Positions 14,227 through 61,251 of a stretch of DNA of 64,000 bases are shown here, piece by piece. The position numbers and the translations under genes are program-made. The notes under the pieces were generated by a model. That model searched no databases. It saw nothing but the letters and a program-made list of their open reading frames with translations, and was not told the DNA's origin. Every line of letters starts with the position of its first letter. Position 1 is the first letter of the stretch. This stretch comes from Bacteriovoracia bacterium (GTDB lineage Bacteria; Bdellovibrionota; UBA1018; CAIPTA01), in the NCBI GenBank assembly GCA_050246755.1, contig JBFWVL010000001.1, positions 1,198,486 through 1,262,485 on the forward strand, written 5' to 3'.

Positions 14227-14233
14227 GAAAGCC

Positions 14234-14787: not shown

Positions 14788-14991
14788 CTAGAAGCTAGGG
14801 CGACGGCCTTTTTTCTCCGAACGCTTGCGGGCGGCCAAAGATTTTTTCTTGCGGCGAACGCTGGGCTTTTCGTAATGCTCACGCTTACGAACTTCGGAAA
14901 GAATACCGGCTTTTTCACAAAGCTTTTTGAAACGCTTAATGGCGTTTTCGAAGGACTCGCCTTCGTTTACGCGAATGGTAGGTTTTTCCAT
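14788..14991 (-). CDS. rpsU: 30S ribosomal protein S21
   Basis: 67 aa, [50 protein letters not shown]..., basic C-terminus; characteristic S21. Confidence 0.9.
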
Positions 14992-40182: not shown

Positions 40183-40191
40183 GTAGCTCTC

Positions 40192-42132: not shown

Positions 42133-42142
42133 GACGAAATCC

Positions 42143-42999: not shown

Positions 43000-43439
43000 T
43001 TCTTCGCCCTTTGAATCAAGAGATAATCTTTGTCATACACGCGGCGCTCGTAGTCGGCCATTTCGTAAATATTCGAAAGCTTAATGGCGTCCTTCGGGCA
43101 GGCTTCTTCACAAAAACCGCAAAAGCAGCAGCGTAAGATATCGATTTCGAATTTCACGGGATACTTCTCTTTATTGGCGCGCTCGCCGGCTTCAATGTGA
43201 ATGCAATCGGCGGGGCAAATCGTGGGGCAAAGCATGCAGGCCGTGCAGTTCTCCACGCCATTTACGGTTTTGATGTAATGCTGGCCACGGTAACGCGGAG
43301 AATAACTACGGCGCTCCTCGGGATATTGGTACGTGATGTTTTTTCCGAAAAACCAGAACTTCATCGTGATCAGAAGCCCTTTGAAGAGCTCGATCAAGTA
43401 GAAGCGCTGCAGAAATCCATGTTCGCGTTTAATCAGCAT
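42996..43439 (-). CDS. nuoI: NADH-quinone oxidoreductase subunit I (2x[4Fe-4S])
   Basis: 147 aa; two CxxCxxCxxxCP motifs (CTACMLCPTICP, CCFCGFCEEACP). Confidence 0.9.
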   Translation of the reverse strand: MLIKREHGFLQRFYLIELFKGLLITMKFWFFGKNITYQYPEERRSYSPRYRGQHYIKTVNGVENCTACMLCPTICPADCIHIEAGERANKEKYPVKFEIDILRCCFCGFCEEACPKDAIKLSNIYEMADYERRVYDKDYLLIQRAKK

Positions 43440-43448
43440 AAATTTTCC

Positions 43449-44552: not shown

Positions 44553-44555
44553 GAC

Positions 44556-45974: not shown

Positions 45975-45988
45975 TTTATTCCTTTAAT

Positions 45989-47278
45989 CTAGTGGCTATA
46001 GCTCGAGCTTCCAAAAGGGCAACGCTTCTCGTTCACGTGTTGCTCGTATTCGGTTCGGAATTTTTTCACCATTGAACGCAACGGCCAGGCAGTGGCTTCG
46101 CCGAATGCACAGATCGTGGTTCCGTCCATGTTATTGCAAATGTCTTCGATCAGATCGAGGTCGCCAATATTCCCCTCGCCCCGCTCGAGGCGCAGGTGAA
46201 GATCTTTGAGCCACATGGAGCCCTCGCGGCAAGGTGTACATTGTCCGCAGCTTTCCACTTGGTAAAAATGCGCGGTGCGGATCGCCACCTTGAGAATACA
46301 AGTAGCGTCGTCTATTACCATAATGCCGGCCGAGCCGAGCATGGAACCAGCCTTCGCCAAAGAATCAAAATCCAGGTTCACACTGCATTCTTCGGCCGTG
46401 AGCACCGGCGAGGAGGATCCGCCGGGAAAAGCCGCCTTCAGCTTCCGGCCCTTCCAAATTCCCCCACAATCTTCGTTGATCAACTGCATGAGAGGGTAAC
46501 CGAGGGGACGCTCGTATAGGCCAGGACGGTTTACGTGTCCAGAAATACAGAACAGCTTCATGCCGTGATTGCGCTCGGGACCGAACTGCTTGAACCAGGC
46601 GGCGCCGCGATTAATGATCATCGGAATGCAGGCTAAGGTTTCCACGTTATTCACTACCGTGGGGCAACCGAACAAACCGATAGCGGCCGGGAAAAAAGGA
46701 GGCTTGATTCGCGGTTCGCCCCGCTTTCCCTCGAGGGAATTCAGGAGCGCGGTTTCTTCTCCGCAAATATACGCGCCGGCCCCGCGATGCACGATCATGT
46801 CGAGCTGGTATCCCGTGCCGTTCACGTTTTTTCCAAGCAAACCGGCCTTATAGGCTTCTTCGATCGCTTTATCGAGGATCTTTGCCTCCTTCACGTATTC
46901 ACCGCGGATATAGCAGTAAATCATATGAGCATTGATCGCCATCGCGGCGATGATGGCACCTTCGATCATGAGATGAGGCTGGTAAGCCATGATCGCGCGA
47001 TCCTTAAAAGTGCCGGGCTCAGATTCGTCGGCGTTGATCACGAGATACTTCGGTTTATCTGAATTCTTCGGAATGAATCCCCATTTCGTGCCGCAAGGAA
47101 ATCCGGCGCCCCCGCGCCCGCGAAGGCCGCTTTCCTTTACCTCGGCCAAAACTTTTTCTGGCCCCATTTCCACGGCCTTCGGAAGAGCCGTATAACCCGA
47201 TTCATTCTTTTTATAGGCGTCGAGGCCTTCCACACCGGCCTGGCCGTAATATTTAGAGAATACGATTTCCTGCTGCAT
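45989..47278 (-). CDS. nuoF: NADH-quinone oxidoreductase subunit F (FMN/NADH-binding)
   Basis: 429 aa; GRGGAGFPCGTKW, GAGAYICGEETALLNSLEG, ESCGQCTPCREG. Confidence 0.92.
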   Translation of the reverse strand: MQQEIVFSKYYGQAGVEGLDAYKKNESGYTALPKAVEMGPEKVLAEVKESGLRGRGGAGFPCGTKWGFIPKNSDKPKYLVINADESEPGTFKDRAIMAYQPHLMIEGAIIAAMAINAHMIYCYIRGEYVKEAKILDKAIEEAYKAGLLGKNVNGTGYQLDMIVHRGAGAYICGEETALLNSLEGKRGEPRIKPPFFPAAIGLFGCPTVVNNVETLACIPMIINRGAAWFKQFGPERNHGMKLFCISGHVNRPGLYERPLGYPLMQLINEDCGGIWKGRKLKAAFPGGSSSPVLTAEECSVNLDFDSLAKAGSMLGSAGIMVIDDATCILKVAIRTAHFYQVESCGQCTPCREGSMWLKDLHLRLERGEGNIGDLDLIEDICNNMDGTTICAFGEATAWPLRSMVKKFRTEYEQHVNEKRCPFGSSSYSH

Positions 47279-47751
47279 TAGCGGAACTCCTCAAGCACTT
47301 TATCGAGCTGTTTCTCATCGAAATTCTCGTGGTAGTCGTCGTTGATCTGGCAAACCGGCGCCGTGCCGCAAGATCCGAGGCACTCCACTTCGGAAATAGT
47401 GAACATTCCATCCTTGGTGGTACCACCCAGAGAAACACCGCACTTCTTTTCCGCGCGGTGAATGAGGTCTTCGGAGCCGCGCAGCCAGCATGCGATGTTA
47501 TTGCAAAACTGGAGGTTATACTTGCCCACCGGCTTGGTGTGGAACATGTGATAAAACGTAACCACTTCTTTCACCCGCGTTTTCGGAATCGCGAGAAAAT
47601 CGGCCACATCTTGCATCGTATCGTCGGAGATCCAGCCGCGGTCTTTTTGGGCCGCATGCAGAGCCGGTAAGAGCATGGCTAGCTTATTGGGATACATTCC
47701 TTGAATGCGGTCCATCTCGGCGTAAAATTCGTTTCCAAATTTCTTTTCCAT
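47278..47751 (-). CDS. nuoE: NADH-quinone oxidoreductase subunit E (2Fe-2S)
   Basis: 157 aa; CNNIACW...CLGSCGTAPV thioredoxin-like 2Fe-2S motif. Confidence 0.9.
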   Translation of the reverse strand: MEKKFGNEFYAEMDRIQGMYPNKLAMLLPALHAAQKDRGWISDDTMQDVADFLAIPKTRVKEVVTFYHMFHTKPVGKYNLQFCNNIACWLRGSEDLIHRAEKKCGVSLGGTTKDGMFTISEVECLGSCGTAPVCQINDDYHENFDEKQLDKVLEEFR

Positions 47752-47752
47752 A

Positions 47753-48994
47753 TTAGCGGTCTAACTCCCCGGCAATAATATTCACGGAACCAATCACGGC
47801 GATCACGTCGCCCACGTTTTCACCCTTCACCATCTCGTCTACGGGCTGGAACATGAAGAAAGAGGGGGCGCGGATACGCAAGCGGTAGGCCTTGGGACCG
47901 CCGCGGCTGATCGCGTAGAAGCCCATTTCGCCATTTGGGCCCTCCATAGGGCAGTACGCTTCTCCTGGAGGAACATCGAAACCTTCCATGAAAAATTTGA
48001 AATGGTGGATCAAGGACTCCATCGAATTATAAACGCGTTCCTTTTCCGGAATCTTCACGCGTTTATCGTCGGCCCAGATTGGGCCTTTGGGCATTTTCTG
48101 CGCGATCTGGCGGAGCATGCGGATGGATTCGAAAATTTCCGCCATACGCACCAGATAGCGATCGTACACGTCGCCGCCCTTTGCCACCGGAACGTCGAAC
48201 TCCAGCTCGCGGTACGCAAGATAAGGGCGGTCCCTGCGTAGGTCGATATTTACGTTGGAAGCGCGGAGGCAAGGGCCCGTCATCGAGTAAGCGAGTGCCT
48301 GTTCGGCGGTGAAAACGCCCACACCGCGGGTACGATCCACCCAGATACGGTTGTTCGTGAGCAGCTTGTCGAGCTCCTTAAAACATCTTTCGGTTTCATC
48401 AAGCCAAGCGTTCAGACGGGGAATGAAGCCATCGGGCAAATCACCAGAAAGACCGCCCACGCGGGTATAGGTGGTGGTCAACCGTGACCCACAGAGACTT
48501 TCGATCAAACTATAAGCTTCTTCGCGCTGGTGGAATCCGATGAGAAAGTAGGTCATGGCGCCAAGGTCGAAGGCATTGATGCCCACGCAAATGATATGAT
48601 CAATGATCCGCGCCATTTCGCAAACCATCGTGCGAATCCACACGTTGCGCGGAGGAATCTCGATGCCCATGAGCTTCTCGATCGTGGTCACGTAGGCCAC
48701 GTTATTCTGCAGGGCCGAACAATAATTCAGGCGGTCCGTATAGGGAATAAACTTATGGTAGGTTTTCACCTCGCCGAGCTTTTCCATCCCGCGATGCAAA
48801 TAACCGATCTCACATTTGCTCTCCTCCACCACTTCGCCGTTGAGCCGGCAAACGATACGAAGCGTTCCGTGGGTCGCCGGATGCTGGGGACCGATATTGA
48901 TAAGCATCTGCGAACTCTCGAAGATATCGCCATTATCGTCGTCTTCGAAGGCATCGCCTTTTCTAGGGAGCTGGAGTCCGGTTAGTTTATCCAT
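47753..48994 (-). CDS. nuoD: NADH-quinone oxidoreductase subunit D
   Basis: 413 aa; NIGPQHPATHGTLRIV, IGYLHRGMEKL, YTDRLNY, C-terminal GSVNIIAGELDR. Confidence 0.92.
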   Translation of the reverse strand: MDKLTGLQLPRKGDAFEDDDNGDIFESSQMLINIGPQHPATHGTLRIVCRLNGEVVEESKCEIGYLHRGMEKLGEVKTYHKFIPYTDRLNYCSALQNNVAYVTTIEKLMGIEIPPRNVWIRTMVCEMARIIDHIICVGINAFDLGAMTYFLIGFHQREEAYSLIESLCGSRLTTTYTRVGGLSGDLPDGFIPRLNAWLDETERCFKELDKLLTNNRIWVDRTRGVGVFTAEQALAYSMTGPCLRASNVNIDLRRDRPYLAYRELEFDVPVAKGGDVYDRYLVRMAEIFESIRMLRQIAQKMPKGPIWADDKRVKIPEKERVYNSMESLIHHFKFFMEGFDVPPGEAYCPMEGPNGEMGFYAISRGGPKAYRLRIRAPSFFMFQPVDEMVKGENVGDVIAVIGSVNIIAGELDR

Positions 48995-49647
48995 TATTCA
49001 CGCTCCAATACGGTCTTGGCCGAGCCTGGAGAGCCGATTGTTTTTTCTTTACGCAGCTCGTGCCGCGACATTCTCTCCGCCGATGGATCAAGACCGAAGC
49101 TATCGGTGGATGCCGATCCCTCGAAGCGCTGGTAGCGCTTAATGGGATAGTCCTTACGCTGGGGATGCCCCACCCAGCGCTCGTCGAGCAGAATGCGGTG
49201 CAGGTGGGGATGGCCCGAAAATCTCACGCCGTACATATCGAACACCTCGCGCTCCAGCCAATTGGCGGCCCTCCAGATGCCCACCACCGAGGGAGTTTCT
49301 TCTTCTTCTCTCACCCGCACCTTAATACGGATGCGGTCGTGGTTCTGCAGGGAAAAAAGCTGGTACACCACCACGAAGCGGTGCGCCCCGCCGGGGTTCT
49401 TCAAAGTGCCGAGGCCGTAGTCCGCGATCTTATCCAGCGGAGGATTATCATCGTAAGCGGTGAGATCAGAAAGGAAGCTGTACTCGAGGCCCTCTTCCGT
49501 GCGGATCGACTGCAAAAATTCTACGATTTTTTCTTTGCGCACGAAAAAAATAGGATCATCGGTATTTTCCGATACTACTTCCTCAATGGCATCGCCGTAA
49601 CGGGCTTTGATCCTGTCGATTTTTTCCTTCGGAAAATCCATCTTCAT
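48994..49647 (-). CDS. nuoC: NADH-quinone oxidoreductase subunit C
   Basis: 217 aa; [24 protein letters not shown] signature. Confidence 0.9.
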
Positions 49648-50126
49648 TGCAGCATCGCCTTACTTTTTTTAATTTTTTCCTGGAGCCGCATCACGCCGTG
49701 AATCACGCCCTCAGGAGAGGGCGGGCAGCCGGGAATATAGATGTCCACCGGAATTACTTCATCCGCACCCTGCATAACACTGTAGGTATCGAAAATGCCG
49801 CCGGAAGAAGAACAAGCGCCCATTGCGATCACCCACTTAGGATCGGCCATTTGCTCATAGAGAGTCTTGAGCACGGGGCCCATCTTCTCCGTGATCGTGC
49901 CGGCGATGATCATCATATCGCTCTGACGAGGAGAAAAGCGCACCACCTCGGCGCCGAAACGCGCAAGATCGTAGTCGGCCGAAAGCGTGGCCATCATCTC
50001 GATTCCGCAGCAGCTCGTACCGAAAGGATAGGGCCAGAGAGAGTTGGCTCTCGCCCAATTTACAAAATCTTCCAGTCTAGTAGTTAAAACATCCGGTGCG
50101 CCGTCTTTTGGCATATCGCCCCCCAT
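49644..50126 (-). CDS. nuoB: NADH-quinone oxidoreductase subunit B (N2 cluster)
   Basis: 160 aa; [23 protein letters not shown] cysteine motifs. Confidence 0.92.
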
Positions 50127-50151
50127 TCAGGCCGCTTCTGCGGCCCAGAAA

Positions 50152-50514
50152 CTATTCCCACTCGAGCCCGCCGCGGCGCCATTCGTATAAAAAGGCCACG
50201 GTAATCATGGTCATGAAAAATAGCATTACGCCGAGGATGAAAAAGTTCACCCCGAGAAATTTCCGGTACGCGAGGGCCCACGGAAAGAGCAGGGCTACCT
50301 CCACATCGAATAATAGAAAAGAAAGTGCCACGAGATAGAAGCGAACCGAAAAACGCTTTCTCGCGTCTCCACTAGGAGGTACGCCGCATTCGTATACGGA
50401 ATTTTTGAATTTATTAGGTCGCTTTGGTCCCAAGAGAGCCGCGCCGAAAATTACGGCGAACGAGATGCCTAACCCCACGAGAAACAAAAGCAAAACCGGA
50501 AAATACCCGGACAT
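50152..50514 (-). CDS. nuoA: NADH-quinone oxidoreductase subunit A
   Basis: 120 aa; YECG motif and FDVEVALLFPW; AGGGGG-type RBS upstream of the ATG. Confidence 0.88.
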   Translation of the reverse strand: MSGYFPVLLLFLVGLGISFAVIFGAALLGPKRPNKFKNSVYECGVPPSGDARKRFSVRFYLVALSFLLFDVEVALLFPWALAYRKFLGVNFFILGVMLFFMTMITVAFLYEWRRGGLEWE

Positions 50515-50556
50515 GCTGCACCCCCTAATGTGTGCAAAAAATTTAGCATGTTGGAT

Positions 50557-52011
50557 TTATTTAAGAAAGACTTTTGCAGTTTCGAAAAGTAAGGCAAATA
50601 CCCGATGCCAAAGGAATCCAAGCGCGGCGAGAGCAACGATTGCGACGGCTAACGAGAGCCACTCCAACGCGCCGTACCGAAACAGAACAAGAGGCGCAGT
50701 GTTTGTCGACGACGAAGCGCGTTGGCGGAATAGTAAATCCGTTCCCACGCGAATGGAAATTAGCGAAAGGGTGGCCACCAGCAGTACTTCGGCCGCGAGG
50801 AAAAATAGGGATTTCTGTTCCATCATCGCCGCCAAAAGATTCAATGCCATGGGAAATCCAGGTAAACCAGGAATGCAAAGCGGGCTGGCGAGCGCCAATA
50901 ATAGCAATAACCCCGAAGAGCGAAACGTGCGCGCGGCACCGTAGACATCTTTTAAATTTTCGCCGCCGGCACTTTCTTGAAATCGTCCCCAGTTAAAACC
51001 CAAAAGACTGGTCCAAACAAAAACCGAGGCAAAAGCATAGGTAATGGAGGATGCACTAAGTACGGTCGGCAATGCACCGGCCACTAAAATGGCCGACCAC
51101 TGCGCGCCCACTAGGGCACTGAAAAGACGCTTTGAATTTTCCTGCGTGAGCGCCACTAGGGCCAGCCAAAAGCCACCGCTAAGCCCACAGAGCTGTAACG
51201 TGCGCAGTCCCTCGGAAACTTCCCCGGGCCGAGCCTTGCCAAAAACCTCCACTCCCATTTTCCACAAAGCGAGGGTAACCGTTCCCTGCCAGATCACGGA
51301 AAGGGTTACCACTACCGGCCAGGGCATTCCTTGGTCGCGATCCACGTGCGCAAAGTGAAATGGAAAGAGTCCGGCGGCCATCACGAAGGGCAGGCAAAGC
51401 GCAAACACCACGAGAAGCGCGCTGAGGGAATAAATCGATTGCGCGTGAAGAAAAGAAGAGATCACATCATAGTGAACGCCGCCGGCGACCACGGCCAGAG
51501 CCGTAGCCGCGCCAAACCCACCCGCCATTACCAGAGAAGCTTGAATCCAGTACTTCAAGACGGCTTCCCCTTCACCGCGACCCCGAAACGCCAGGCCGCC
51601 GAGGAAAAGAGATAACCACGATCCGCAAACCAGAAGGATAATCGAAAGGGTCATCTGTCGGGAAAGCAGCAAGAGATCACAAAGCATTACCAGCGTGGAA
51701 AGCAGGAAAAGAACTTCGTGTTTTCTTTTTGCGGGTAACTCTTTGGTGGCCACAACGCCGCGCCCCAGGAGAAGGGCCGCCACGAAAAGAGCCGCACGCG
51801 GCAAACGGAAAAGCGGTTGATCTTCCAGAAGCCCGAACCAGATTTGGGACTGATCGGCCGATTGGCCCACGGCCAAGGTTGCCATTGCCGCCAAAAATCC
51901 GAGGCTTGAAAGAAATTCAATCGCCGTGCGCGAGCGAGAACTGCGGTTAAAAAGCAGCGCCACTCCTTGCGCTAGCGTGGCTAATCCGACGACTAAAATC
52001 GATAAGGGCAT
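50557..52011 (-). CDS. Divergent complex I antiporter-like membrane subunit (NuoN-like)
   Basis: 484 aa polytopic protein; EAVLKYWIQASLVMAGGFGA and GLFPFHFAHVDRDQGMP align by eye with nuoN EASVKYFVMGGASAAIYLYG and AAPFHMWAPDVYEGAP, but charged residues differ. Confidence 0.65.
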   Translation of the reverse strand: MPLSILVVGLATLAQGVALLFNRSSRSRTAIEFLSSLGFLAAMATLAVGQSADQSQIWFGLLEDQPLFRLPRAALFVAALLLGRGVVATKELPAKRKHEVLFLLSTLVMLCDLLLLSRQMTLSIILLVCGSWLSLFLGGLAFRGRGEGEAVLKYWIQASLVMAGGFGAATALAVVAGGVHYDVISSFLHAQSIYSLSALLVVFALCLPFVMAAGLFPFHFAHVDRDQGMPWPVVVTLSVIWQGTVTLALWKMGVEVFGKARPGEVSEGLRTLQLCGLSGGFWLALVALTQENSKRLFSALVGAQWSAILVAGALPTVLSASSITYAFASVFVWTSLLGFNWGRFQESAGGENLKDVYGAARTFRSSGLLLLLALASPLCIPGLPGFPMALNLLAAMMEQKSLFFLAAEVLLVATLSLISIRVGTDLLFRQRASSSTNTAPLVLFRYGALEWLSLAVAIVALAALGFLWHRVFALLFETAKVFLK

Positions 52012-52023
52012 GCCGACCTCAAA

Positions 52024-53478
52024 CTAATTGCCATTTAATCCTTTCAGCAGGGCCGCCACCGATACTCCCATGGGCCCCAGAAGCAGGCTCGGCAAAACCC
52101 CTAAAACCAAAAGCACCAGACCAAGCGGTGCAATCGCAAGAATCTCTTCCCAAACCAAGTCGTGAAACTCTCCGCGATCTCCATCACCGGCCCCGGCGTC
52201 GAGACGAAAAAACATAATGCTCATCCCAGCAAAAGCAACCACCGGAACTGCTAGCGTAACCACGAGCAGCGGCCAGCTATGCACCCCGCTCAGCGACCAA
52301 ATAACGAAAAGTACCCCGTAGAATCCAATGGAAACCGGCAGAAAGAGCGCAAAAAGGGAGGCCGCCGCCGTGCTGAGCGCAAAGGCAGGAAATTCACGGA
52401 TTCTTTGGAGCGGTAAGGGGAATTTTCTTCTCTCGTGACAAGCAAGCACGAAGAGCATGAACGGAATAGAGAGCGTTTGGAAAAATAGGAGAATAAGAGA
52501 GCCGTGCCACCCTTTGGGATTTAAATTGAACAAGCCGATGGCGATGAACGAGCAAACGGTCTGCTGCAACCAAAATACGCGATCGCGCGCCTGGCGTGCG
52601 CCGAGAAAATTCAGCGCACAGTAAAGGGCGCCGATGGAGAAAAAGGCCAGAAGGTAATGGCCGAACCGCAAAAGCTCGCCGGGAAAAAGCTCCACCACGA
52701 AACGAGAGAGCAAAGTAAATCCCAGAAGCGGCTGCAGCGCTAGCGGCACCGCTTTTTCTACGGATTCCATTTCGAATATCCGGCGGGTGCTGCCGTGAAA
52801 GGGAAATATTCCGGCGCCGATCCCGAATGCCAGCAGCAATAATCCAAAGCCGATCGACCCCGGCAGTACCATATAGGTATCGCCCGATAGTCGGAACCAC
52901 TCCCCGATGGAACCACGGAATCCCTCCGAGAACGCCAGCACGCAAAGCAATAACGACAATGAAGCGATGGTAGAGAGAAAAGCCGCCTCGCGTACCGGCT
53001 CAATGCGATTTTCCTTTGCGTCTACCCCGGAAAATATAAATCGGGGGAGTAATGCGCCGGCAAAGAAAACAGAGAAAAGCAAAAGGTGATCAGCGCCTAG
53101 GGCACCGAGCACACAAGTCAAGTAGGCGGAAAGGCTGGCTACCGAGGCGCGGGATTTCTCGAGCATTCCCCTCGCCAGAAAGTGATAGCAAACGGTTACG
53201 GAAGAGACCGCTAGCGCCAATATTCCCGAATGAAATACCCAGCGGAGGCCCGTGTGATTCGACCAAGCGCTCTGGGCGAGAATCGCCGGAGAAAGCACGC
53301 TTCCGGCGTATTCGTTGGGCGAATAGAAGCCGATGGCCAAAAACAGAAAACAAACCCAAGAGAGAAGGTGCACCAACAACGAAAATGCCCAGAGCTTCTT
53401 CCCGCGCACGGGACCGCAAGCCGCCACCGTGACGAGCAGAGGCAAAAACGTAGCGATTAGTCCCGCCCAGCCTTTCAC
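52024..53478 (-). CDS. Divergent complex I antiporter-like membrane subunit (NuoM-like)
   Basis: ORF 52024..53520; start possibly GTG 53478 overlapping the upstream stop (GTGA). GIGAGIFPFHGSTRRIF aligns with nuoM AIKVPLFPLHTWLPDAH; polytopic. Confidence 0.6.
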   Translation of the reverse strand: MKGWAGLIATFLPLLVTVAACGPVRGKKLWAFSLLVHLLSWVCFLFLAIGFYSPNEYAGSVLSPAILAQSAWSNHTGLRWVFHSGILALAVSSVTVCYHFLARGMLEKSRASVASLSAYLTCVLGALGADHLLLFSVFFAGALLPRFIFSGVDAKENRIEPVREAAFLSTIASLSLLLCVLAFSEGFRGSIGEWFRLSGDTYMVLPGSIGFGLLLLAFGIGAGIFPFHGSTRRIFEMESVEKAVPLALQPLLGFTLLSRFVVELFPGELLRFGHYLLAFFSIGALYCALNFLGARQARDRVFWLQQTVCSFIAIGLFNLNPKGWHGSLILLFFQTLSIPFMLFVLACHERRKFPLPLQRIREFPAFALSTAAASLFALFLPVSIGFYGVLFVIWSLSGVHSWPLLVVTLAVPVVAFAGMSIMFFRLDAGAGDGDRGEFHDLVWEEILAIAPLGLVLLVLGVLPSLLLGPMGVSVAALLKGLNGN

Positions 53479-54818
53479 AGGATCCCCCCGGCCAGCTGCG
53501 TGGCCACGACAATGAAACACATCAGGAAAACTCCATACCCAGCGAAAGCGGCCGGGGCCGACTCGAGAGAGGATTCCGCTCCCGGCTCAGGAGGACGATC
53601 ATCCACAAAAATTCTTCGGCAGATATGCACGTTGGCGCAGAAGTAAAAAAACCAAAGCAAGCCGAATACGATGCCGTAGCTGATACCGAGATCGAGGGAA
53701 CGAGCGCCGATCCCACTGAAAATCTGAAACACCGGGGTGCCGGGCACTCCGAGGATAAGCGCGAAAAGAATTCCCACGAAAACCTTCTGTAGCGGGCGCA
53801 CCACTTTGACCACCGAAGCATAAAGTACTAGCCCGGTGAATACTGGTACGAAGAGACAGGTAAAGTACGCGGATAGTACTAAGCTTGTCTTCGAGACTCC
53901 CACCGAAACCAAAATGAGCGAAAAGAAAAAACTCGGTAGGCTTCCCAGCATTTTTCGCCTGGATCCGGCCGCAAAAAGACCGCTGATAGAAAAGGCGCAG
54001 CCGGAGATTCCCAGTAGATACAAAGCCAGCTTCTGCTTCCACCCCATATCGGGATAAACCACAGAAAAAAGCGTGGATATCTTCAAGGCCACCGCGCTGA
54101 TGAAGGTAACCAAGGTAACGGTTACGCCTTCCGGAAGATTTTCCACCGCCATACTGAACCATCGGGACCATGGCGGAAGCGGAATCGAGAGCACTACAAG
54201 GCCCAGCCAGATAAATAAACCGAGCGAAGAACCGGAGCGGGGGCCGAATAGCATATCCTTCGCGCCGAATTCCACCACGCCCCATACAATCATCAGCAGT
54301 CCCAACAAGAAGTAGAGGCTATACATACGGCGGGAAATTCTATCTCCCATCTCACGACTGGCCCCGGCAATGGCAAAGCGAATTAGGTAGAAGAACACCG
54401 CCGCCGCCAGCAAAAGCAAACCCCCAGTAGCTACCGCGTTGTTAGAAATTATAAAAAGGCTGGTAAACGCCTGCGCCAGCGATAGCAGCACGCTTACCAC
54501 TCGCAGGCCGCCCGCCACCGCCCCCATCGCATGGGCAAAAAGAAAGCAGAGTTCTGCGGTGAGCAAAAAACCAAGCCGGAAAGAATCAAGCGAGAGCACG
54601 AATTCGAGCGGATAACCATCAGCAAGCGAGGTAGAAATTTCAATTACCGCTCCGCCAAATACAACCGGGCGTAAAAGCACGATGAGAAGTAGAGCGCGAA
54701 GGCTCGACGCGATGATCCCCGGGGAAACGAGCCTTTTGTGAAATGCATTCGGCAAAGGTATCGCGGCGGCGAAGGGCAAAACTATATACAGTAAGAATAT
54801 TAGCCGTTCTAAGCTCAT
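53475..54818 (-). CDS. Divergent complex I antiporter-like membrane subunit (additional NuoM/N-like paralog)
   Basis: 447 aa polytopic protein; IPLPPWSRWFSMAVENLPEG loosely aligns with the antiporter-like PLFPLHTWLPDAHVQAP region; 4-nt overlap with upstream gene. Confidence 0.55.
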   Translation of the reverse strand: MSLERLIFLLYIVLPFAAAIPLPNAFHKRLVSPGIIASSLRALLLIVLLRPVVFGGAVIEISTSLADGYPLEFVLSLDSFRLGFLLTAELCFLFAHAMGAVAGGLRVVSVLLSLAQAFTSLFIISNNAVATGGLLLLAAAVFFYLIRFAIAGASREMGDRISRRMYSLYFLLGLLMIVWGVVEFGAKDMLFGPRSGSSLGLFIWLGLVVLSIPLPPWSRWFSMAVENLPEGVTVTLVTFISAVALKISTLFSVVYPDMGWKQKLALYLLGISGCAFSISGLFAAGSRRKMLGSLPSFFFSLILVSVGVSKTSLVLSAYFTCLFVPVFTGLVLYASVVKVVRPLQKVFVGILFALILGVPGTPVFQIFSGIGARSLDLGISYGIVFGLLWFFYFCANVHICRRIFVDDRPPEPGAESSLESAPAAFAGYGVFLMCFIVVATQLAGGIL

Positions 54819-56563
54819 TTAGCCCCCAGGAGAAAGAGCACTCCGGCGAAAAGCGTGAGCACGGTTCCAAAAAACAAATAAAAGCGAATATTTCCGGAAT
54901 GAAGAAAACGCATCAGCCGAGAAAGCGAGGATCCGTAAGCGAGAAAACCACCCGGAAATTTCTCGGCAAAGAGCATCCGATCCGTCTCTTGCAGGGCACT
55001 GGCAGCGCGAATATTTATGGTTCCAGCTCTAAGCGCAATCCAGTCCATTCCTTTTTCGGGCGCAAGCACGGCCGCCTGATTCCAGCGGACAACCGCAGGA
55101 TCGATTCGCGGAAAAAGATCTTCCATTTTCTTTTCCTTATTGGCGCTCCAAATACTAAGGCGAGAATTAGCTCCAAGGAGCATACCCGCCAACCCTCCCA
55201 CCAGCAGGGCGGCCCCGCGCACTACAAGGGAAATATCGGATAAGAAATCTATCGGGAACTGAAGCAGCCCGGACAACCCATCGTAGGCCCGGAATAGAGC
55301 GGCCAGTTGAATCAGGATAACCAGTGACGCGGGCAAAACCGCGGAAGCGAAAGTAAAATTATTTTCCTTCTCTTTGTTCTGCCGCAGAGAACCCACCAAT
55401 GCCTTCACGGCCACCAGAGAAAGCAGAAAAGTGAGTATTCCCATGATGGCTATTTTCAAGATCGTTTCCCGATTCTCGGTATGCGCCGAAGGTACGCTCG
55501 TAAAAGGAACCACGCCGGAGATGATTCCCAGCAAAAACAGTGTGGCTAAGAATATGAGCGCCGTTCGCCACGCTTGGGCACTTTGGCGGGCGAAGCGGAG
55601 CAAAAGGCTTAGGGCGTAACAAGAAAGCAGGCCCATCGCTTCGAAGGCTCCCCAGCTTAATTCTTCCGGCTTTAAAGACGAGAAGCGCAGAAAGAGGATG
55701 TATCCAAAAATGCCGAATAACATCCAAAAGCTGGCGCTAAGCGTGGTGGAGGCGAGAAAAGACAAAGCCGAAAACAGTGCCGTGGCAACTGCAAATAGCG
55801 CCGAAAGCGGGATCCATAATTCGCCCGACATGTCCTCGTGGATAACTCTACCCAGCAGAAAAAAGGCCGTACCCGCCTGAATCAACGCGAGCGGAACATA
55901 GCGCCACTCGCTGAAATTATGCTTAGAAAGCATGAATGCCATCACGTAAAGCACCATGCCGAGCAGAACGACGGAGCTATTGGTAAAGAAGCTCGCCGCG
56001 GTGAGGCCGAGCATCGCGATCAATCCGAGAAATAAAAAACTATTTCGCTTAAAATAGGAAATTCTCTCGAGCTCGCCCTCTGTGCCGCCCATTTCTAGGC
56101 TGAAAGAATGCAAGAGGAAAACGGTGATTTCGATGAACATCAGCGAAAGGAGCGCGTTCTCGCTCAAGTAGGCGAGGGCCAGGAATAAGAACGAACCGCT
56201 TAGGAATAGAAAGCGCAGCGTACCCCTCGCGCCGCCGAAGGAAGAAGCGCCGTCGAACATGACCAAACCAAGCAAAACGGAGGCAGAAAGAAAAATCCAA
56301 ACGTACCGCACCCAATACATGAGTAACGACGGCTCAAAATAGCCGGAAGTGTCGGTGGAAAGGGGCAATAGAAATTCCATTTTCACCGGAAGCTCAAACT
56401 GAAAAATCCCGATTAGGGAGGCGAGCAGCATCGTGCCGAACAAAATAAGACCGCCACGCTTCTCGGAATCGGAACGGCGATCGCTCTTAAGCGCAAACAA
56501 AACCAGCGCCGCAAGCGGGGCGCAGAATATAAGCAGTGGCACTACGATATTCCCAAAATTCAT
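54815..56563 (-). CDS. Divergent complex I antiporter-like membrane subunit (NuoL-like by position and length)
   Basis: 582 aa polytopic protein immediately after the NuoK-like gene, with extended C-terminal region; canonical NuoL motifs not recognizable by eye. Confidence 0.55.
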   Translation of the reverse strand: MNFGNIVVPLLIFCAPLAALVLFALKSDRRSDSEKRGGLILFGTMLLASLIGIFQFELPVKMEFLLPLSTDTSGYFEPSLLMYWVRYVWIFLSASVLLGLVMFDGASSFGGARGTLRFLFLSGSFLFLALAYLSENALLSLMFIEITVFLLHSFSLEMGGTEGELERISYFKRNSFLFLGLIAMLGLTAASFFTNSSVVLLGMVLYVMAFMLSKHNFSEWRYVPLALIQAGTAFFLLGRVIHEDMSGELWIPLSALFAVATALFSALSFLASTTLSASFWMLFGIFGYILFLRFSSLKPEELSWGAFEAMGLLSCYALSLLLRFARQSAQAWRTALIFLATLFLLGIISGVVPFTSVPSAHTENRETILKIAIMGILTFLLSLVAVKALVGSLRQNKEKENNFTFASAVLPASLVILIQLAALFRAYDGLSGLLQFPIDFLSDISLVVRGAALLVGGLAGMLLGANSRLSIWSANKEKKMEDLFPRIDPAVVRWNQAAVLAPEKGMDWIALRAGTINIRAASALQETDRMLFAEKFPGGFLAYGSSLSRLMRFLHSGNIRFYLFFGTVLTLFAGVLFLLGAK

Positions 56564-56578
56564 CCGTTAAAACTCCAG

Positions 56579-56899
56579 CTAATGCCGCAAACTATCTTCT
56601 TCATCCACATCCAGCGTTCCGCGAAATCGGCTACAGCGGTGCAATACCAGCAGACCCACCGCCACGAGCGCGGGAACCATTCCCAATGCCACTAACGAGA
56701 GCACGATGAGATCTCCGCCGCCGGAAGAAAAATATTGCGAGAATAAAAATCCACATGCCACCACGGCCTTAAGTGCGGTGGCCTGACCCACCAGCCCCCA
56801 TGCCGCCACCCGGCGCAGCGCGATGGCCGAAAGGCCCGCCACAAATACGGCCAAGAGCAAGATCACGTTAATTTTGTTTGCCACCGAGGTTAAATCCAT
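56579..56899 (-). CDS. Divergent NuoK-like small membrane subunit
   Basis: Track ORF 56579..57289 overlaps the NuoJ-like gene in another frame; start taken at ATG 56899 (MDLTSVANKINVILLLAVFVAG...), giving 106 aa with three hydrophobic helices at the NuoK position. Confidence 0.55.
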   Translation of the reverse strand: MDLTSVANKINVILLLAVFVAGLSAIALRRVAAWGLVGQATALKAVVACGFLFSQYFSSGGGDLIVLSLVALGMVPALVAVGLLVLHRCSRFRGTLDVDEEDSLRH

Positions 56900-57393
56900 T
56901 ACCGCTCCCTCCGCACAAGGAAGAATCCTCCGGTAACGATTACGATCAGGAAAAGCAGCGGAATCACCGCTAGCAGCCAGTCGGAGGTCCAGATTTTTTC
57001 GTGGAGCAGAGACAAACTTGGCGCCGGCGTCACCCCCGGTGGCATCAACTCCTCGAGCTCCAAGATCGCCAGCGCGCCGGTGACCACCGAGCAAAGGCCT
57101 AGCCATAGGAAAAACAGGCGATACAGCCAATCGGCACGGCGATTGCGGGCCGGGCGCGCGGGAAGCAGTTCTTGGGTGCGAAAATAAAGATAAATAGCGA
57201 AATCGGCCGAAAGAAATACCGCAATCATCATAATCCCAAAGTATCCGCCACTCATGAGTTCTACGGCCGCGCCCAAGCCAATGGAGCAAAGAATAGATCC
57301 CCAGAGTAAACGTTCGGTGGAATCGGCGGTGATCGCCATAATCGCGGAAATCAATGCCAACGCCAAACAGCTGCCAACAAAAAATGAGATCAT
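56899..57393 (-). CDS. Divergent NuoJ-like membrane subunit
   Basis: 164 aa, hydrophobic helices, in the J position between the NuoI-like and NuoK-like genes. Confidence 0.55.
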   Translation of the reverse strand: MISFFVGSCLALALISAIMAITADSTERLLWGSILCSIGLGAAVELMSGGYFGIMMIAVFLSADFAIYLYFRTQELLPARPARNRRADWLYRLFFLWLGLCSVVTGALAILELEELMPPGVTPAPSLSLLHEKIWTSDWLLAVIPLLFLIVIVTGGFFLVRRER

Positions 57394-57863
57394 CGTCTCA
57401 CCTCGTAAGTACGAATACGGGTGATGTCTTTATCGCTCTTCTGGCCGCCACCACGAAATACGGCGATTAAATCTTTCGTGCTCTCGGTAACGATTTCAAA
57501 TTCTTTGGAATAGGAAAGGCTAGCCTCGGGACAGATCTCGATACAAACACCGCACGAAAAGCATTTTCCCAAATGAATATTGAATTCTTGCACGCGAATC
57601 GTACCGTCGCGCAGGTTCTCGGAAGTAAAATCAATTGCCTTCACCGGACAGGCCGGAACGCAAAGACCGCATCCACTGCACTTCGATAAATCATTGGTCA
57701 CGTAGCCCTTATAGCTAGTGAACATGTCTAATGGGGCCTTGGCGGACACTAGGTCTGGATACTTTTCCACGACGCTTTTGTAACGATGCTTCGTACGGCG
57801 CAGAAAGCCGAAATTGATTTTCAGCGTGCTCTTGAGGGCGTTAATTACCTGCCTGACCTTCAT
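57390..57863 (-). CDS. Divergent NuoI-like 2x[4Fe-4S] ferredoxin subunit
   Basis: ORF 57390..57911; start probably Met17 at 57863 (ATGA overlap with upstream stop); two CxxCxxCxxxCP motifs (CSGCGLCVPACP, CFSCGVCIEICP). Confidence 0.75.
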   Translation of the reverse strand: MKVRQVINALKSTLKINFGFLRRTKHRYKSVVEKYPDLVSAKAPLDMFTSYKGYVTNDLSKCSGCGLCVPACPVKAIDFTSENLRDGTIRVQEFNIHLGKCFSCGVCIEICPEASLSYSKEFEIVTESTKDLIAVFRGGGQKSDKDITRIRTYEVRR

Positions 57864-58795
57864 CCGCGCACCCCCACCCAAACGGCTTCGAGAAAGAATC
57901 CGATGAGACATAGACGCAATAGCCAGCGGGCCGCCAATTCACTGGCGTCGGCCGAGCGAATCTTAGGAAAACTAGCCTGCAGAAGGGTGAACACGAATAT
58001 TCCGGCCGCCACTTTCAGCGGAAAGAGAACTTTCACGATGAGCCCGCTGGCCCCTCCGCAAAAAACGTATACCCAGAAACAAATCAAAGAGAATACCCAC
58101 ATTTTCTGCACGAAAATCGTGATGTATTGCATCGAGTGATTGAGGCTCTGCTCATCTTGCAGCTGCACTGGACTTTCCGTGGCGAAAAGGAAAATGGAGC
58201 AGAAGGCGGTTATGCCGCAAAGGAAAAGACCCGGACTGCTCAGCAGCGCGTGATAGGGGAAATAAATCTGAAAATCCGAAATCGCGCTCAAGTTGAGCTG
58301 ACCCACCCTTAGGGTTACGGCGAAAACCGATAGCAGCAATCCCGAAACTCCCATCGCCCGAAGCAAAAGCCGGCGGCGGCGGTCGAAACGCTCGCGTGAA
58401 TCGGCGGTGGCATGCACCAGCAGCGCCTCTAAAGCGGCCGCGATCATCGGAAAAAGCAGCAGGAGTGGAAGATCAATTTGATCGCCGCCCTCCGGGTAAG
58501 TTACCGCCAGCAAAGCCAGCAGGAATACTATGGGAAGAATTCGCCAAACCAAGGAGGCGAGACGTATCCGAAACGGCAGGGCCAATAAATCCGCCGGCTT
58601 CTTTTTCCGGGTTTTCTGAAAATCTTTCCAGACCTGAAAAAAATCCGTTTGCCCATGCCGGCCGGGCCCGTCGCGATGCTGCACGCGAGCAGCGACGAAG
58701 CGTTCGCAAAAAAGAAGGAAGAAGGTTCCCCCAAAGAGAAAGAGTAGCGAGCCCACGAGCGCCGCCCCGGCGAGCAAGAAATCTAGCGCACTCAT
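57860..58795 (-). CDS. Divergent NuoH-like membrane subunit
   Basis: 311 aa; RVQHRDGPGRHGQTDFFQVWKDFQK aligns with NuoH RxGPNxVGxxGLLQxxADxxK; polytopic. Confidence 0.7.
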   Translation of the reverse strand: MSALDFLLAGAALVGSLLFLFGGTFFLLFCERFVAARVQHRDGPGRHGQTDFFQVWKDFQKTRKKKPADLLALPFRIRLASLVWRILPIVFLLALLAVTYPEGGDQIDLPLLLLFPMIAAALEALLVHATADSRERFDRRRRLLLRAMGVSGLLLSVFAVTLRVGQLNLSAISDFQIYFPYHALLSSPGLFLCGITAFCSIFLFATESPVQLQDEQSLNHSMQYITIFVQKMWVFSLICFWVYVFCGGASGLIVKVLFPLKVAAGIFVFTLLQASFPKIRSADASELAARWLLRLCLIGFFLEAVWVGVRG

Positions 58796-59868
58796 TTGTC
58801 TACCTCCGAAAAGGAGATATCGAGCGAATGAATCACGAGGAAAGCGTCTTCCGCGTGAATTCCGCGCAGCAGGCGCGGCAGCACCTGAACCGCCATAGCC
58901 GAAGGGCAGAAAAAACTTACTTGCGACGGCTGCGAACGGCCATCGGATTCAACCATCGCGTAGATAGCTCCGCGAGGGCCCTCCACGCCACAAACTGCTT
59001 TTCCGGGCGCCGGGCGCACGTCTAGACCCACCCGGATGCGGTGGTTACCCGAAGGAATATGGCGAAATACGGATTCGATGAGCTGAGCCGACTGCAAAAT
59101 TTCCCGCTTGCGAATGTGTGCGCGGTCGAACGCGTCTCCCAGATAATTCCTCGAGGTGTCTAGCATCATCTCTGTGCCACGATAAGCGCCGTAGGGGCGC
59201 GAAACCCGAAGATCGCAGTCCGCTAAGCCGCTCGCACGCGCGTTAGGACCAGTAATATTCCAATTTTTAACCATCGCCGCATCTAACTGGCCCAAACCCC
59301 GGGTGCGCTTTTCGAAAAACGGGTGCGTAAGGAGGGAGCTTTCTAGATCCGGCAAAAATTCTCTTAAGCTGGCCACGGCTTTTTCGATTTTAAAAAACCA
59401 TCCGTCGGTGGCGTCGCTGATCACTCCACCAAGGCAAATAGAGCCGAAACCAAGGCGCGAACCGCAATACATCTCAAATATATCCGCGAAGCGCTCGCGT
59501 TCCCGGAGGCAGTGATTCATGATCGCAGCCTGCCCGGCAGCCCTGGCCAAATTTCCGTAGTAATGAAGATGGCTGGCAATTCGGTTGAGCTCGAGCAGAA
59601 TTAGGCGAATCTGCTCAGACCGAGCCGAGATTTCTATGCGCAGCAAGTCTTCGCAGGCCGAGGCAAGAGCGAAATTGAAGGCCGGAGCCGCGAGATAATC
59701 GAGGCGATCCATGTAATTTAGGGCTTGGGCTAAAGGTAGCTGCAATGCGATCGCTTCCAGGCTACGGCGTCCATAACCCACGGTCATCCGGGCGTCGGCC
59801 ACTAAGCCACCGTCTTCTTCGAGCTTCAGCCCGAAAGCACCGATTCCCTGCGTTCCCGCAAGATACAT
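58792..59868 (-). CDS. Divergent NuoD-like (49-kDa-type) subunit; no NiFe-binding cysteine motifs
   Basis: ORF 58792..59967; start probably Met34 at 59868. LAGTQGIGAFGLKLEEDGGLV / VGYGRRSLEAI / YMDRLDY / HSLDISFSEVDK align with canonical nuoD GPQHPATHGTLRIV / IGYLHRGMEKL / YTDRLNY / GSVNIIAGELDR. No CxxC pairs at either terminus. Confidence 0.75.
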   Translation of the reverse strand: MYLAGTQGIGAFGLKLEEDGGLVADARMTVGYGRRSLEAIALQLPLAQALNYMDRLDYLAAPAFNFALASACEDLLRIEISARSEQIRLILLELNRIASHLHYYGNLARAAGQAAIMNHCLRERERFADIFEMYCGSRLGFGSICLGGVISDATDGWFFKIEKAVASLREFLPDLESSLLTHPFFEKRTRGLGQLDAAMVKNWNITGPNARASGLADCDLRVSRPYGAYRGTEMMLDTSRNYLGDAFDRAHIRKREILQSAQLIESVFRHIPSGNHRIRVGLDVRPAPGKAVCGVEGPRGAIYAMVESDGRSQPSQVSFFCPSAMAVQVLPRLLRGIHAEDAFLVIHSLDISFSEVDK

Positions 59869-59879
59869 AGGAGTATAAT

Positions 59880-60272
59880 CTAAAGTGGTCGCCACGTGGC
59901 GTCCCTTTCTGGAATCATGCCGGCGAACTCTACTCCGTTGAAAGTGCGTAGCTCTTCTTCCCACCAAAGACTAAACGGCCAGAGGGCGCTGGGGCGCGGA
60001 AAGGCCGAAGAAGGAGCAACTTCCAGAATAAAAAAGATCGGTTCATTTCCGCACGTAAGCAGCAGCTCGATGGAAAGATTCGTGCCCGCGCCGGCCGTCG
60101 ATAACCCATGCAAAGCGGGGCGTTCGCCAGAGGGTAGCGCGCCCCAATGCTCGAGCAATTTTGCCAGCTCCGAAGTTCCCGCCTGGACGCGAGAAACTTT
60201 ATCTCCGGCCGCAGGGGTGCCCGGCACCTTCACGATGCCTCCCCAAATATTTTTTTCTCCGCCTGATCTCAC
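59880..60272 (-). CDS. Divergent, shortened NuoC-like (30-kDa-type) subunit
   Basis: 130 aa; LWPFSLWWEEELRTFNGVEFAG aligns with canonical [22 protein letters not shown]. Confidence 0.6.
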   Translation of the reverse strand: MRSGGEKNIWGGIVKVPGTPAAGDKVSRVQAGTSELAKLLEHWGALPSGERPALHGLSTAGAGTNLSIELLLTCGNEPIFFILEVAPSSAFPRPSALWPFSLWWEEELRTFNGVEFAGMIPERDATWRPL

Positions 60273-60718
60273 GACGCGGACCTCCGGATTTTTTCCTGCA
60301 ATTTAATCAGCGCATGAATCAATGACTCCGGTCGTGGAGGACAGCCCGGAATAAAAAGATCCACGGGAATTATGGCCTCGAGACCCGGGATACGATGTTT
60401 TCCTTCGGCCGAAAACATTCCACCGGTGCTGGCGCAACTGCCAACGGCCACCACGAATTTTGGATCGCGCATCTCGGCGTAAATCTTTTTCAGTTCTTCG
60501 GCAATGCCGGGAGTTACCGGGCCTGAAACAAAGAGCACATCGGCGTTACGATGATCGGTCACAATCCGGCAACCGAGCCTCTCCCAATCGAATCTCGGTC
60601 CGGAAGCAGCTTCCACTTCCAGGGTACAGCAAGAAAGCCCCACATGATAAACCCATAACGAATCCGCGAGCGCGGATTTTGGCTGAGAGGGAGCGGATTC
60701 TTTTTGGATCTCCATCAT
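60269..60718 (-). CDS. Divergent NuoB-like (PSST-type) subunit with N2-cluster cysteines retained
   Basis: 149 aa; SCCTLEVEA, GSCASTGG, PGCPP: all four N2 cysteine ligands in canonical spacing. Confidence 0.8.
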   Translation of the reverse strand: MMEIQKESAPSQPKSALADSLWVYHVGLSCCTLEVEAASGPRFDWERLGCRIVTDHRNADVLFVSGPVTPGIAEELKKIYAEMRDPKFVVAVGSCASTGGMFSAEGKHRIPGLEAIIPVDLFIPGCPPRPESLIHALIKLQEKIRRSAS

Positions 60719-61137
60719 TGGTTTTCCTTATCGGGCCACTCGAGATTGTCTATCCACTTCAGGTAGCTTTTACGGCCGCCGTACCAAAGTAGGGCCAGCA
60801 TCAACGCGGGAAAAATCAAAACCTTTCCCATCACCAGCCAGCGGTCGTGCATTTCGAGGGAAACTATTTTTTGCCGGTACGAAGCCCACATCGGCAAAGA
60901 GAGTGCGATTCCGCACCAGAGCATTAGCAGCCAAAGAACGTGATAGAATGAACGGAACGCACCTTCCGGGGCGCCGTTCCCTGGCTCACGAATTCCCTGA
61001 ACCTTTTCGAGACGATCCCATAGCACGAGCACCAAAATGGCCACAAAAAGCAGCACTGCTGGAATTAAAAAGAGGAGAAATCTAGAATACATCTGCCGTC
61101 CTTGAGTTTCAGTGCCTCTTCCCACAGCCATATTCAC
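60715..61137 (-). CDS. Divergent NuoA-like small membrane subunit
   Basis: 140 aa (start ambiguous: GTG 61137, ATG 61131 or ATG 61092); three hydrophobic helices; C-terminal YLKWIDNLEW resembles NuoA YEWRRGGLEW. Confidence 0.5.
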   Translation of the reverse strand: MNMAVGRGTETQGRQMYSRFLLFLIPAVLLFVAILVLVLWDRLEKVQGIREPGNGAPEGAFRSFYHVLWLLMLWCGIALSLPMWASYRQKIVSLEMHDRWLVMGKVLIFPALMLALLWYGGRKSYLKWIDNLEWPDKENQ

Positions 61138-61194: not shown

Positions 61195-61223
61195 AGCGTA
61201 AGAACTTTGCAGGAACGTGTCAA
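61195..61223 (-). promoter_or_regulatory. Candidate sigma-70 promoter for the divergent complex I-like cluster (TTGACA-N17-TACGCT, minus strand)
   Basis: Minus strand reads TTGACA (61223..61218), 17-nt spacer, TACGCT (61200..61195), in the 114-nt divergent intergenic region shared with mfd. Confidence 0.35.
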
Positions 61224-61251
61224 GAATTATGCTGTAATATGGGATAGTTAG

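Follow-up and report, generated by a model that had tools for sequence, protein, structure and literature searches.

A window of 64,000 nucleotides (nt; "the window" is the whole stretch of DNA analyzed here) from a metagenome-assembled genome (MAG) of Bacteriovoracia (Bdellovibrionota) raises the question of what a second, highly divergent set of complex I genes does beside a canonical one. Directly upstream of the canonical nuoA-N operon lies a cluster of 12 intact, co-directional minus-strand open reading frames (ORFs) in the order A-B-C-D-H-I-J-K-L-M-M-N (50557-61092, or 61137 with the longest form of the first ORF). We refer to it as the second cluster and to its genes as A2 to N2; at NCBI the products are listed as MGE32613xx, with locus tags AB7K68_059xx. 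A first-pass annotation, made from the sequence by eye, had described 12 packed minus-strand genes in complex I order without NuoE, NuoF and NuoG, and this description held, with all ORFs intact. The window's only copies of NuoE/F/G, the NADH-oxidizing N-module, are part of the downstream canonical operon, and no homologues were found inside the second cluster, either here or in the other loci examined. Our preferred reading, to which we assign a probability of roughly 45%, is that the second cluster encodes a clade-specific, strongly diverged '2M' complex I paralogue that has no N-module and is likely non-catalytic or rewired.

Quinone site and Fe-S ligands

The roles of the quinone-site and pump residues of complex I are established (PMC5938582). 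We read their states in the second cluster, over 12 to 14 lineages, by aligning profiles with solved structures and with the canonical subunits encoded in the window. The resident subunits carry every quinone-site and pump residue compared. In D2, His38 (Thermus numbering; alignment to Thermus thermophilus Nqo4) is replaced everywhere by I, L, Q, P, V or M, and Asp139 everywhere by A, V, C, S, T or L. Tyr87 is present in the window and in most lineages and is F or S in several; Arg84 is likewise mostly retained. H2 retains the N-terminal ER..Q.R.GP..G..Q...D..K motif. The first-pass proposal that residues linked to quinone chemistry and proton pumping had been replaced was thus confirmed on proper alignment.

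The same annotation had regarded the Fe-S ligands as preserved. This is correct for B2 and I2 of the window and for I2 throughout the family, in which both CxxCxxCxxxC motifs (eight cysteines) are intact in 13 of 13 lineages, but not for B2 family-wide. The four cysteines that bind the N2 Fe-S center (not to be confused with gene N2) are intact in 9 of the 13 lineages, the window and eight others. They are lost or incomplete in the remaining four, which belong to one sub-clade and differ from each other in the pattern of loss (Table 1). The two lineages in which most of these ligands are gone, L011 and L016, are 82% identical in B2, 83% in D2 and 92% in I2, compared with 74% in Mfd. The loss or incompleteness of the N2-center cysteines in 4 of 13 lineages, together with the conservation of B2, D2 and I2 and the variability of Tyr87, suggests that the redox core is dispensable.

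Proton-pump residues

Of the residues that complex I needs for quinone reduction and proton pumping, hardly any are left in the second cluster. In H2, the acidic loop between transmembrane (TM) segments 5 and 6 (PFDxPEAExE...EYSG) is deleted, and the glutamates of the SYE and AETNR motifs are substituted. The TM2 Asp and Glu of NuoA correspond in A2 to W or L and to G, L, C, F or A. Glu36 and Glu72 of NuoK (alignment to Escherichia coli NuoK) are hydrophobic residues, Pro or Gly in K2 of 14 of 14 lineages, and an invariant Lys occupies the position of Asn40, one turn away from a lost glutamate. The sole conserved charge of J2 is Asp64, which lies in a TM segment and is found in 14 of 14 lineages.

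For the antiporter-like subunits M2b and N2, the conserved PFH and P..GF motifs served as anchors of the alignments. M2b has substitutions at each of the four canonical positions (TM5 Glu, TM7 Lys, TM8 Lys, TM12 Glu), except for a TM7 Arg in two lineages. All four canonical Lys/Glu positions are also substituted in N2, the exception being a TM8 Arg in one lineage (L018). Motif anchors combined with predicted secondary structure left the TM8 Lys as the sole survivor of the four canonical positions in M2a, and an invariant TM5 Glu with a TM7 Lys/Arg as the sole survivors in L2.

Selection on the second cluster

Can genes that have lost so many catalytic residues still be functional? Their being pseudogenes had been named at first pass as an outcome that would overturn the proposal. 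We found no frameshift or stop in the second-cluster ORFs of at least 13 loci, over a range of Mfd identity that extends down to 47%. Between the window and its closest relative, L013, the ratio of nonsynonymous to synonymous substitution rates (dN/dS) was 0.03 to 0.19 for all 12 genes, and 0.02 for nuoA for comparison; dS is saturated, and the values are approximate. Across loci, identities are 66 to 96% for canonical NuoA and NuoB (NuoB, 79 to 96%), 31 to 71% for A2 and B2, and 22 to 63% for the second-cluster membrane subunits. Calibration with Mfd (47 to 83% identity) puts B2, D2 and I2 at an ordinary housekeeping rate, with faster change confined to the membrane subunits. We considered and rejected an abnormally high rate for the entire cluster, because the peripheral subunits match the Mfd rate. 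Intact ORFs, low dN/dS and peripheral subunits that keep pace with Mfd show that these are no pseudogenes, and all of the genes appear to be under purifying selection.

These data also bear on the idea that the cluster is an evolutionary relic, i.e., a former second complex I that is decaying toward loss and has no present function. Wholesale catalytic loss, stepwise erosion of the N2 center within one sub-clade, a lineage without L2, M2a and M2b (L018, see below) and membrane subunits that diverge faster than canonical NuoB are what a relic would show. We nevertheless consider this improbable: the ORFs have remained open with low dN/dS (saturation of dS noted), the 4-nt overlaps persist, as does a conserved promoter element, and the catalytic losses are already common to the deepest branches. 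This sharing of the losses by the deepest branches indicates that the 'dead' state is an old one that has been kept.

Alternatively, the complex may be a working oxidoreductase. A ferredoxin-like donor would then dock on I2, and electrons would pass through N6a/N6b and the N2 center to a quinone or another lipophilic acceptor held by Tyr87, either with no ion translocation or with coupling through rewired residues. The invariant clusters of I2, the most conserved subunit, fit this scheme, as do N2-center ligands that are intact in most lineages including the window, the general retention of Tyr87 and Arg84, and the preserved N-terminal NuoH motifs, which shape the quinone entrance. Moreover, ferredoxin is the presumed donor of N-module-less relatives such as NDH-1 and 2M complex I (PMC8165549, PMC6606698). 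However, His38 and Asp139 are gone everywhere, Tyr87 has become F or S in several lineages, and the N2 center was lost in a sub-clade whose B2 and D2 remain strongly constrained. The canonical relay is missing from M2b, N2, K2, H2 and A2, and nothing would explain purifying selection on four large membrane subunits in an uncoupled enzyme. We therefore regard a working oxidoreductase, with residual ferredoxin-type electron transfer via I2, as the leading alternative, possible but rather unlikely.

Identity of the subunits

Ten of the 11 core subunit types were placed by sequence, profile or structure, and J2 by its conserved position and size alone (Table 1). According to the first-pass annotation, each product could be aligned by eye to its canonical counterpart. 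This was borne out for six of them by BLAST and phmmer, with identities to the resident subunits of 41% (B), 28% (D), 25% (I), 31% (K), 22% (M2b) and 23% (N2). The same searches against the resident Nuo subunits gave no match for A2, C2, H2, J2, L2 or M2a; the first three required profiles, L2 and M2a required HHalign or predicted structures, and J2 has no similarity by hidden Markov model (HMM), HHalign or PDB profile search.

Pfam matches were obtained for B2 (PF01058, 1.4e-28), D2 (PF00346, 7e-49), H2 (PF00146, 3.5e-15), I2 (Fer4 families) and K2 (PF00420, 2e-6). In NCBIfam, B2 matched NuoB (2.8e-46), D2 matched NuoD (3.5e-69, under the curated cutoff), and M2b and N2 matched NDH_I_M (4.5e-22) and NDH_I_N (1.9e-15), both far under the cutoffs; matches were well under the curated cutoffs for all products except with NuoB subfamily models. 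Family profiles, built from eight loci, matched the resident NuoA (A2, 7.7e-5; HHalign probability of 69% over 107 columns), NuoC (C2, 3.6e-7; HHalign, 91%), NuoH (H2, 4e-14, and 1.1e-19 against E. coli NuoH), NuoM (M2b, 1.8e-33) and NuoN (N2, 6e-18). The C2 protein of the window has no Pfam match, and its family profile matches NuoC chains of the PDB at 1.4e-8 (profile positions 27-126 against chain residues 27-125). As only the first ~125 residues of the NuoC chains match, C2 lacks the C-terminal third.

L2 and M2a have no match in Pfam, NCBIfam or PDB sequences. HHalign relates both to M2b, with probabilities of 79% over 377 columns for L2 and 94% over 321 columns for M2a. NuoL/ND5/NdhF chains make up nearly all of the top 50 Foldseek matches of the L2 AlphaFold model (pLDDT 77). 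Its C-terminal end is a long amphipathic helix followed by a terminal TM helix, and its HxGNxRxY motif resembles the QTGxxxxY of NuoL. The M2a model (pLDDT 88.6, pTM 0.91) fits MrpD, NdhD, ND2, ND4 and NuoL/M/N with TM-scores of 0.7 to 0.8. The label NuoJ for J2 derives from its length, the presence of hydrophobic segments and a location between I and K that is constant in all loci.

I2 is the best-conserved subunit of the second cluster. Its C-terminal tail, RIRTYEVRR (within 57390-57440, minus strand), is near-invariant among family members, has no counterpart in the resident NuoI, and could be an interaction motif.

TABLE 1 Features of the second cluster, the flanking elements and the B2 genes with altered N2-center ligands
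Feature	Position	Strand	Characteristics
mfd/A2 intergenic element, sigma-70-like promoter	61195-61251	-	TTGACA 61223-61218, 17-nt spacer, TACGCT 61200-61195
A2, NuoA-like	60715-61092	-	125 aa, three TM segments; ORF reaches GTG at 61137
B2, NuoB-like	60269-60718	-	149 aa, all four N2-center cysteines
C2, truncated NuoC-like	59880-60272	-	130 aa, core alpha/beta domain with WPxAxWxExE motif
D2, short-type NuoD-like	58792-59895	-	367 aa
H2, NuoH-like	57860-58795	-	311 aa
I2, NuoI-like 2x[4Fe-4S] ferredoxin subunit	57390-57863	-	157 aa
J2, NuoJ by position only	56899-57393	-	164 aa, four to five hydrophobic segments
K2, NuoK-like	56579-56899	-	106 aa
L2, NuoL-fold subunit	54815-56563	-	582 aa, lateral helix and terminal TM helix
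M2a, extra antiporter-like subunit	53475-54818	-	447 aa, 14 TM, broken TM7 and TM12
M2b, NuoM-like	52024-53478	-	484 aa
N2, NuoN-like	50557-52011	-	484 aa
N2-nuoA spacer	50515-50556	-	42 nt; extended -10-like TGcTAAATT 50548-50540, GGGGG Shine-Dalgarno
Canonical nuoA-N operon, 14 genes	37113-50514	-	Catalytic residues all present; Pfam matches for the C, E, F, G, L, M and N products
L011 B2	L011:9205-9621		N2-center ligand positions GD / S / N, all four lost
L016 B2	L016:9202-9618		N2-center ligand positions GD / C / S, three of four lost
L012 B2	L012:9130-9597		Partial loss, C111 to S
L015 B2	L015:9169-9621		Partial loss, CG and C140 to S

Relation to known complexes

D2 was informative as to the origin of the cluster. 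Its NCBIfam matches are NuoD, FpoD and NdhH only, and it has no match to PF00374. D2 scores best against NuoD/NdhH (1e-74 to 1e-60, the best being NdhH and Nqo4 at 1e-74), followed by MbhL (4e-55) and HycE (2e-46), and D2 is alignable end to end with MbhL and MbsL. In a neighbor-joining (NJ) tree made without Ehr or 2M reference sequences, D2 groups with the short-type NuoD of other phyla and not with the resident NuoD. These nearest outside relatives are ~366 to 390 aa long, as in N-module-less complex I. A recent tandem duplication of the resident operon was rejected, D2 being 34 to 37% identical to foreign short-type NuoD versus 28% to the resident one. Identities that range from 41% to undetectable and the separate branching of D2 from the resident NuoD agree with the earlier statement that the cluster is no simple nuo duplicate.

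An ordinary second complex I isoenzyme, working like the first, might be suspected from the identical gene order and the shared region, and Bdellovibrionota commonly have more than one nuo cluster (PMC13147790). The loss of the catalytic residues, the missing N-module and NCBIfam matches that are mostly well below the cutoffs make this explanation scarcely credible. The second cluster resembles the resident canonical Nuo14 in the order of the shared genes, in folds and in its adjoining position on the same strand. It differs from Nuo14 not only in sequence, catalytic residues and the absence of E/F/G but also by an extra antiporter-like subunit and a truncated NuoC, and its rate of evolution exceeds that of the canonical subunits several-fold.

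The first-pass annotation had further pointed to the energy-converting hydrogenase-related (Ehr) families. Ehr complexes are defined as relatives of group 4 hydrogenases (PMC6349859, PMC10284858). Like them, the second cluster belongs to the complex I/hydrogenase superfamily and has a large subunit without the ancestral active-site ligands: D2 contains no NiFe CxxC motifs, its C terminus being SLDISFSEVDK, and has no assigned function, as is the case for Ehr (PMC6349859, PMC10284858), and it aligns with MbhL and MbsL. The absence of hydrogenase large-subunit CxxC motifs, noted at first pass, was confirmed, and because the NiFe cysteines are missing a group 4 hydrogenase was rightly set aside. 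The resemblance to Ehr was not supported. Ehr complexes are of group 4 [NiFe] hydrogenase origin, whereas the scores, the order of the genes and the range of subunits mark the second cluster as NuoD-type: MbhL, MbsL and HycE all give D2 a lower score than NuoD/NdhH, D2 has no PF00374 match, the genes follow the nuo order with NuoA, J and K and a lateral-helix NuoL, and D2 nests among short NuoD in the NJ tree. An Ehr-type complex is thus very unlikely. Given the D2 scores, the restriction of its NCBIfam matches and the nuo gene order, we have high confidence that the cluster would prove to be neither Ehr nor hydrogenase. MBH and MBS (Mbx) share with it a NuoB/C/D/I-like peripheral module, a NuoH-like anchor, Mrp-type subunits and a similar large-subunit length, but they retain an active site, a charged relay and Mrp-style gene order and subunits, which the second cluster does not.

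The closest architectural parallel is 2M complex I. As far as the descriptions in PMC6606698 and PMC9040806 go, these complexes (Chadwick et al. 2018) have a second NuoM and, in the L subunit, a lateral helix lengthened by a ~26-aa insertion, and are credited with extra pumping capacity. The second cluster likewise encodes 12 subunits and lacks NuoE/F; its L subunit has a lateral helix, and a second NuoM-like gene lies between L and N. The first-pass annotation had noted the four antiporter-like subunits but had not given this architecture the name 2M. The linker between TM15 and TM16 of L2 is ~88 aa, versus ~71 in the resident NuoL (~17 longer, where 2M reports give a 26-aa insertion), in a low-confidence region of the model. 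Unlike in 2M complex I, the Lys/Glu relay is missing from M2a, M2b and N2, and both the quinone site and the E-channel have been abolished; the 2M likeness is one of subunit architecture. With N-module-less complex I and cyanobacterial NDH-1, the cluster shares 11 core subunit types, the absence of NuoEFG and a NuoI-plus-NuoB Fe-S chain. NDH-1 (PMC8165549) retains the quinone-site and pump residues and has accessory subunits, and the second cluster has neither. We conclude with high confidence that the second cluster is a Nuo-lineage complex I paralogue without N-module and with a 2M subunit architecture.

Distribution and a nine-gene variant

Searches with D2 retrieved ~85 sequence clusters at 38 to 100% identity, followed by a gap to ordinary short-type NuoD at 37% or less. 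All named members are MAGs of Bdellovibrionota, Bacteriovoracia, Oligoflexia or 'Bdellovibrionales'. The L2 profile matched 32 of 1.84 billion representative proteins, all of them family members and none a canonical NuoL. A scan of a genome collection with the alignment returned three family loci and otherwise canonical NuoD loci only; the scan with D2 alone gave no match, and loci L003-L006 shed no light on the origin of the cluster. The family is small and was found only in one Bdellovibrionota lineage. No description of the second cluster was found in the searchable literature; a Peredibacter paper covers different nuo clusters, which are 37 to 41% identical.

Comparison with related genomes, suggested at first pass, showed a constant order. 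Thirteen further loci have serS-TPR-surA-surA-mfd, a divergent second cluster and then nuoA-B-C-D, and the second cluster always sits between mfd and nuoA. One lineage, L018 (Logan SRR2568014 contig, 8700-14801), has a nine-gene variant composed of A2 to K2 and a single N2-type subunit, followed by canonical nuoA-H. It is devoid of L2, M2a and M2b, and its lone large subunit matches the N2 profile at 7e-72. The N2-center cysteines are retained in its B2, and its D2 has Phe at Tyr87. In a crude NJ tree, L018 lies in the basal part of the family, beside a 12-gene lineage. As N2 is its only large membrane subunit, the distal arm appears to be dispensable.

Signals for expression

After the starts were refined against orthologues, most junctions of the second cluster showed overlaps of 1 to 4 nt, a pattern typical of translational coupling. 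The intergenic region between mfd and A2 contains an element of ~55 nt with a sigma-70-like promoter. In the window, CTAACTATcCCATATTACAGCATAATTC precedes TTGACA-N17-TACGCT, and the conserved form is CTAACTATnCCATATTACAGCATAATTC-TTGACA-N17-TACGCT. Both hexamers are present in 8 of 12 loci (window, L002, L009, L011-L014 and L017), in which Mfd is ~50 to 83% identical. A promoter consensus scan missed the element owing to its stricter -10 rule. The element may also contain a regulator site or the mfd promoter.

The ATG of canonical nuoA lies 42 nt past the N2 stop codon. This spacer is conserved in at least nine loci, and the gap contains no terminator-like hairpin or site. The conserved extended -10-like element in it argues that the canonical operon probably has its own promoter. 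Read-through from the second cluster into nuo is possible. Co-transcription with nuo as a firm claim was dropped, as the spacer bears its own conserved element. Two loci, L014 and L018, have longer, unrelated N2-nuoA spacers of 214 and 139 nt.

A possible role for the complex

From the residue states and predicted folds, we infer with high confidence that the products would assemble as a complex-I-shaped particle that would be unable to perform canonical proton pumping driven by quinone reduction. With low confidence, its selected role would be non-catalytic or weakly redox-dependent. As the losses are ancient and shared, the N2 center and three antiporter-like subunits are dispensable in some lineages and selection is purifying, this role may be independent of the N2-to-quinone step and of the distal pump modules. 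In the likeliest version, the complex would be a structural or regulatory membrane assembly, a 'pseudo-enzyme' complex expressed beside, and possibly acting with, canonical complex I. The ferredoxin-like clusters of I2 would be mainly structural or represent a residual electron entry point, and static ion pairs, e.g., between the invariant Lys44 of K2 and the invariant Asp64 of J2, would replace the former proton path.

Three points weigh against such a role. First, electron transfer may remain the selected function in most members, because the I2 cysteines are invariant, the N2-center ligands are kept in 9 of 13 lineages and Tyr87 is mostly present. Second, buried charges persist, namely L2 Glu145 with Lys/Arg214, M2a Lys246, H2 Glu123 and Glu303, and N2 Glu99, and these could make up a rewired ion path. 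Third, a position next to nuo does little to show a functional link, because the whole serS-TPR-surA-surA-mfd neighborhood is syntenic and the spacer looks like an independent promoter. In a further version, the complex would still convert energy, with electron transfer via I2, and the N2 center where present, coupled to a fully rewired ion path; candidates for that path would be the K2 Lys and J2 Asp, L2 Glu145 and Lys214, M2a Lys246 and N2 Glu99. Coupling would then do without His38 and Asp139, the E-channel and the canonical Lys/Glu axis. We hold this version to be unlikely.

Neighboring genes and other observations

The neighbors of the two complex I loci in the window are housekeeping genes (rpoD, dnaG, dnaK, recN, malic enzyme and histidine kinases), none of which is a candidate electron donor. 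We agree with the first-pass annotation that the sequence does not identify an electron donor or acceptor. The canonical NuoG (44556-45974, minus strand) is just 472 aa long; its N-terminal Fe-S domains are present, and its molybdopterin-like domain is reduced to a remnant (PF00384 positions 307-352). The canonical NuoG of L018 is similarly short (473 aa). A 512-aa ORF (32647-34185, plus strand) amid the housekeeping genes and histidine kinases has no Pfam match at E <= 1e-5. The first 6 kb of the window (1-6000) have a GC content of ~47 to 48%, versus 51 to 56% elsewhere, and may be a compositionally distinct segment.

Implications

Annotation pipelines give half of the second-cluster genes the name 'NADH-quinone oxidoreductase subunit' and leave the rest as 'hypothetical'; PGAP, for instance, labels B2 and H2 as Nuo subunits and C2, D2, L2, M2a and N2 as 'hypothetical'. 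Where metabolic reconstructions of these Bdellovibrionota MAGs rely on such annotation, they may include a second proton-pumping complex I that does not exist.

The family naturally replaces the residues that work on the mechanism of complex I probes by point mutants, while folds and selection stay. Its variants provide built-in comparisons between lineages with an intact N2 center, lineages that have lost it and a lineage without L2, M2a and M2b. If the complex is rewired, coupling would be rebuildable from different residues, which current mechanistic models of complex I would not predict. If it is non-catalytic, a whole multi-subunit respiratory complex would for the first time clearly have turned into a pseudo-enzyme, and a 12-subunit membrane scaffold would need a purpose.

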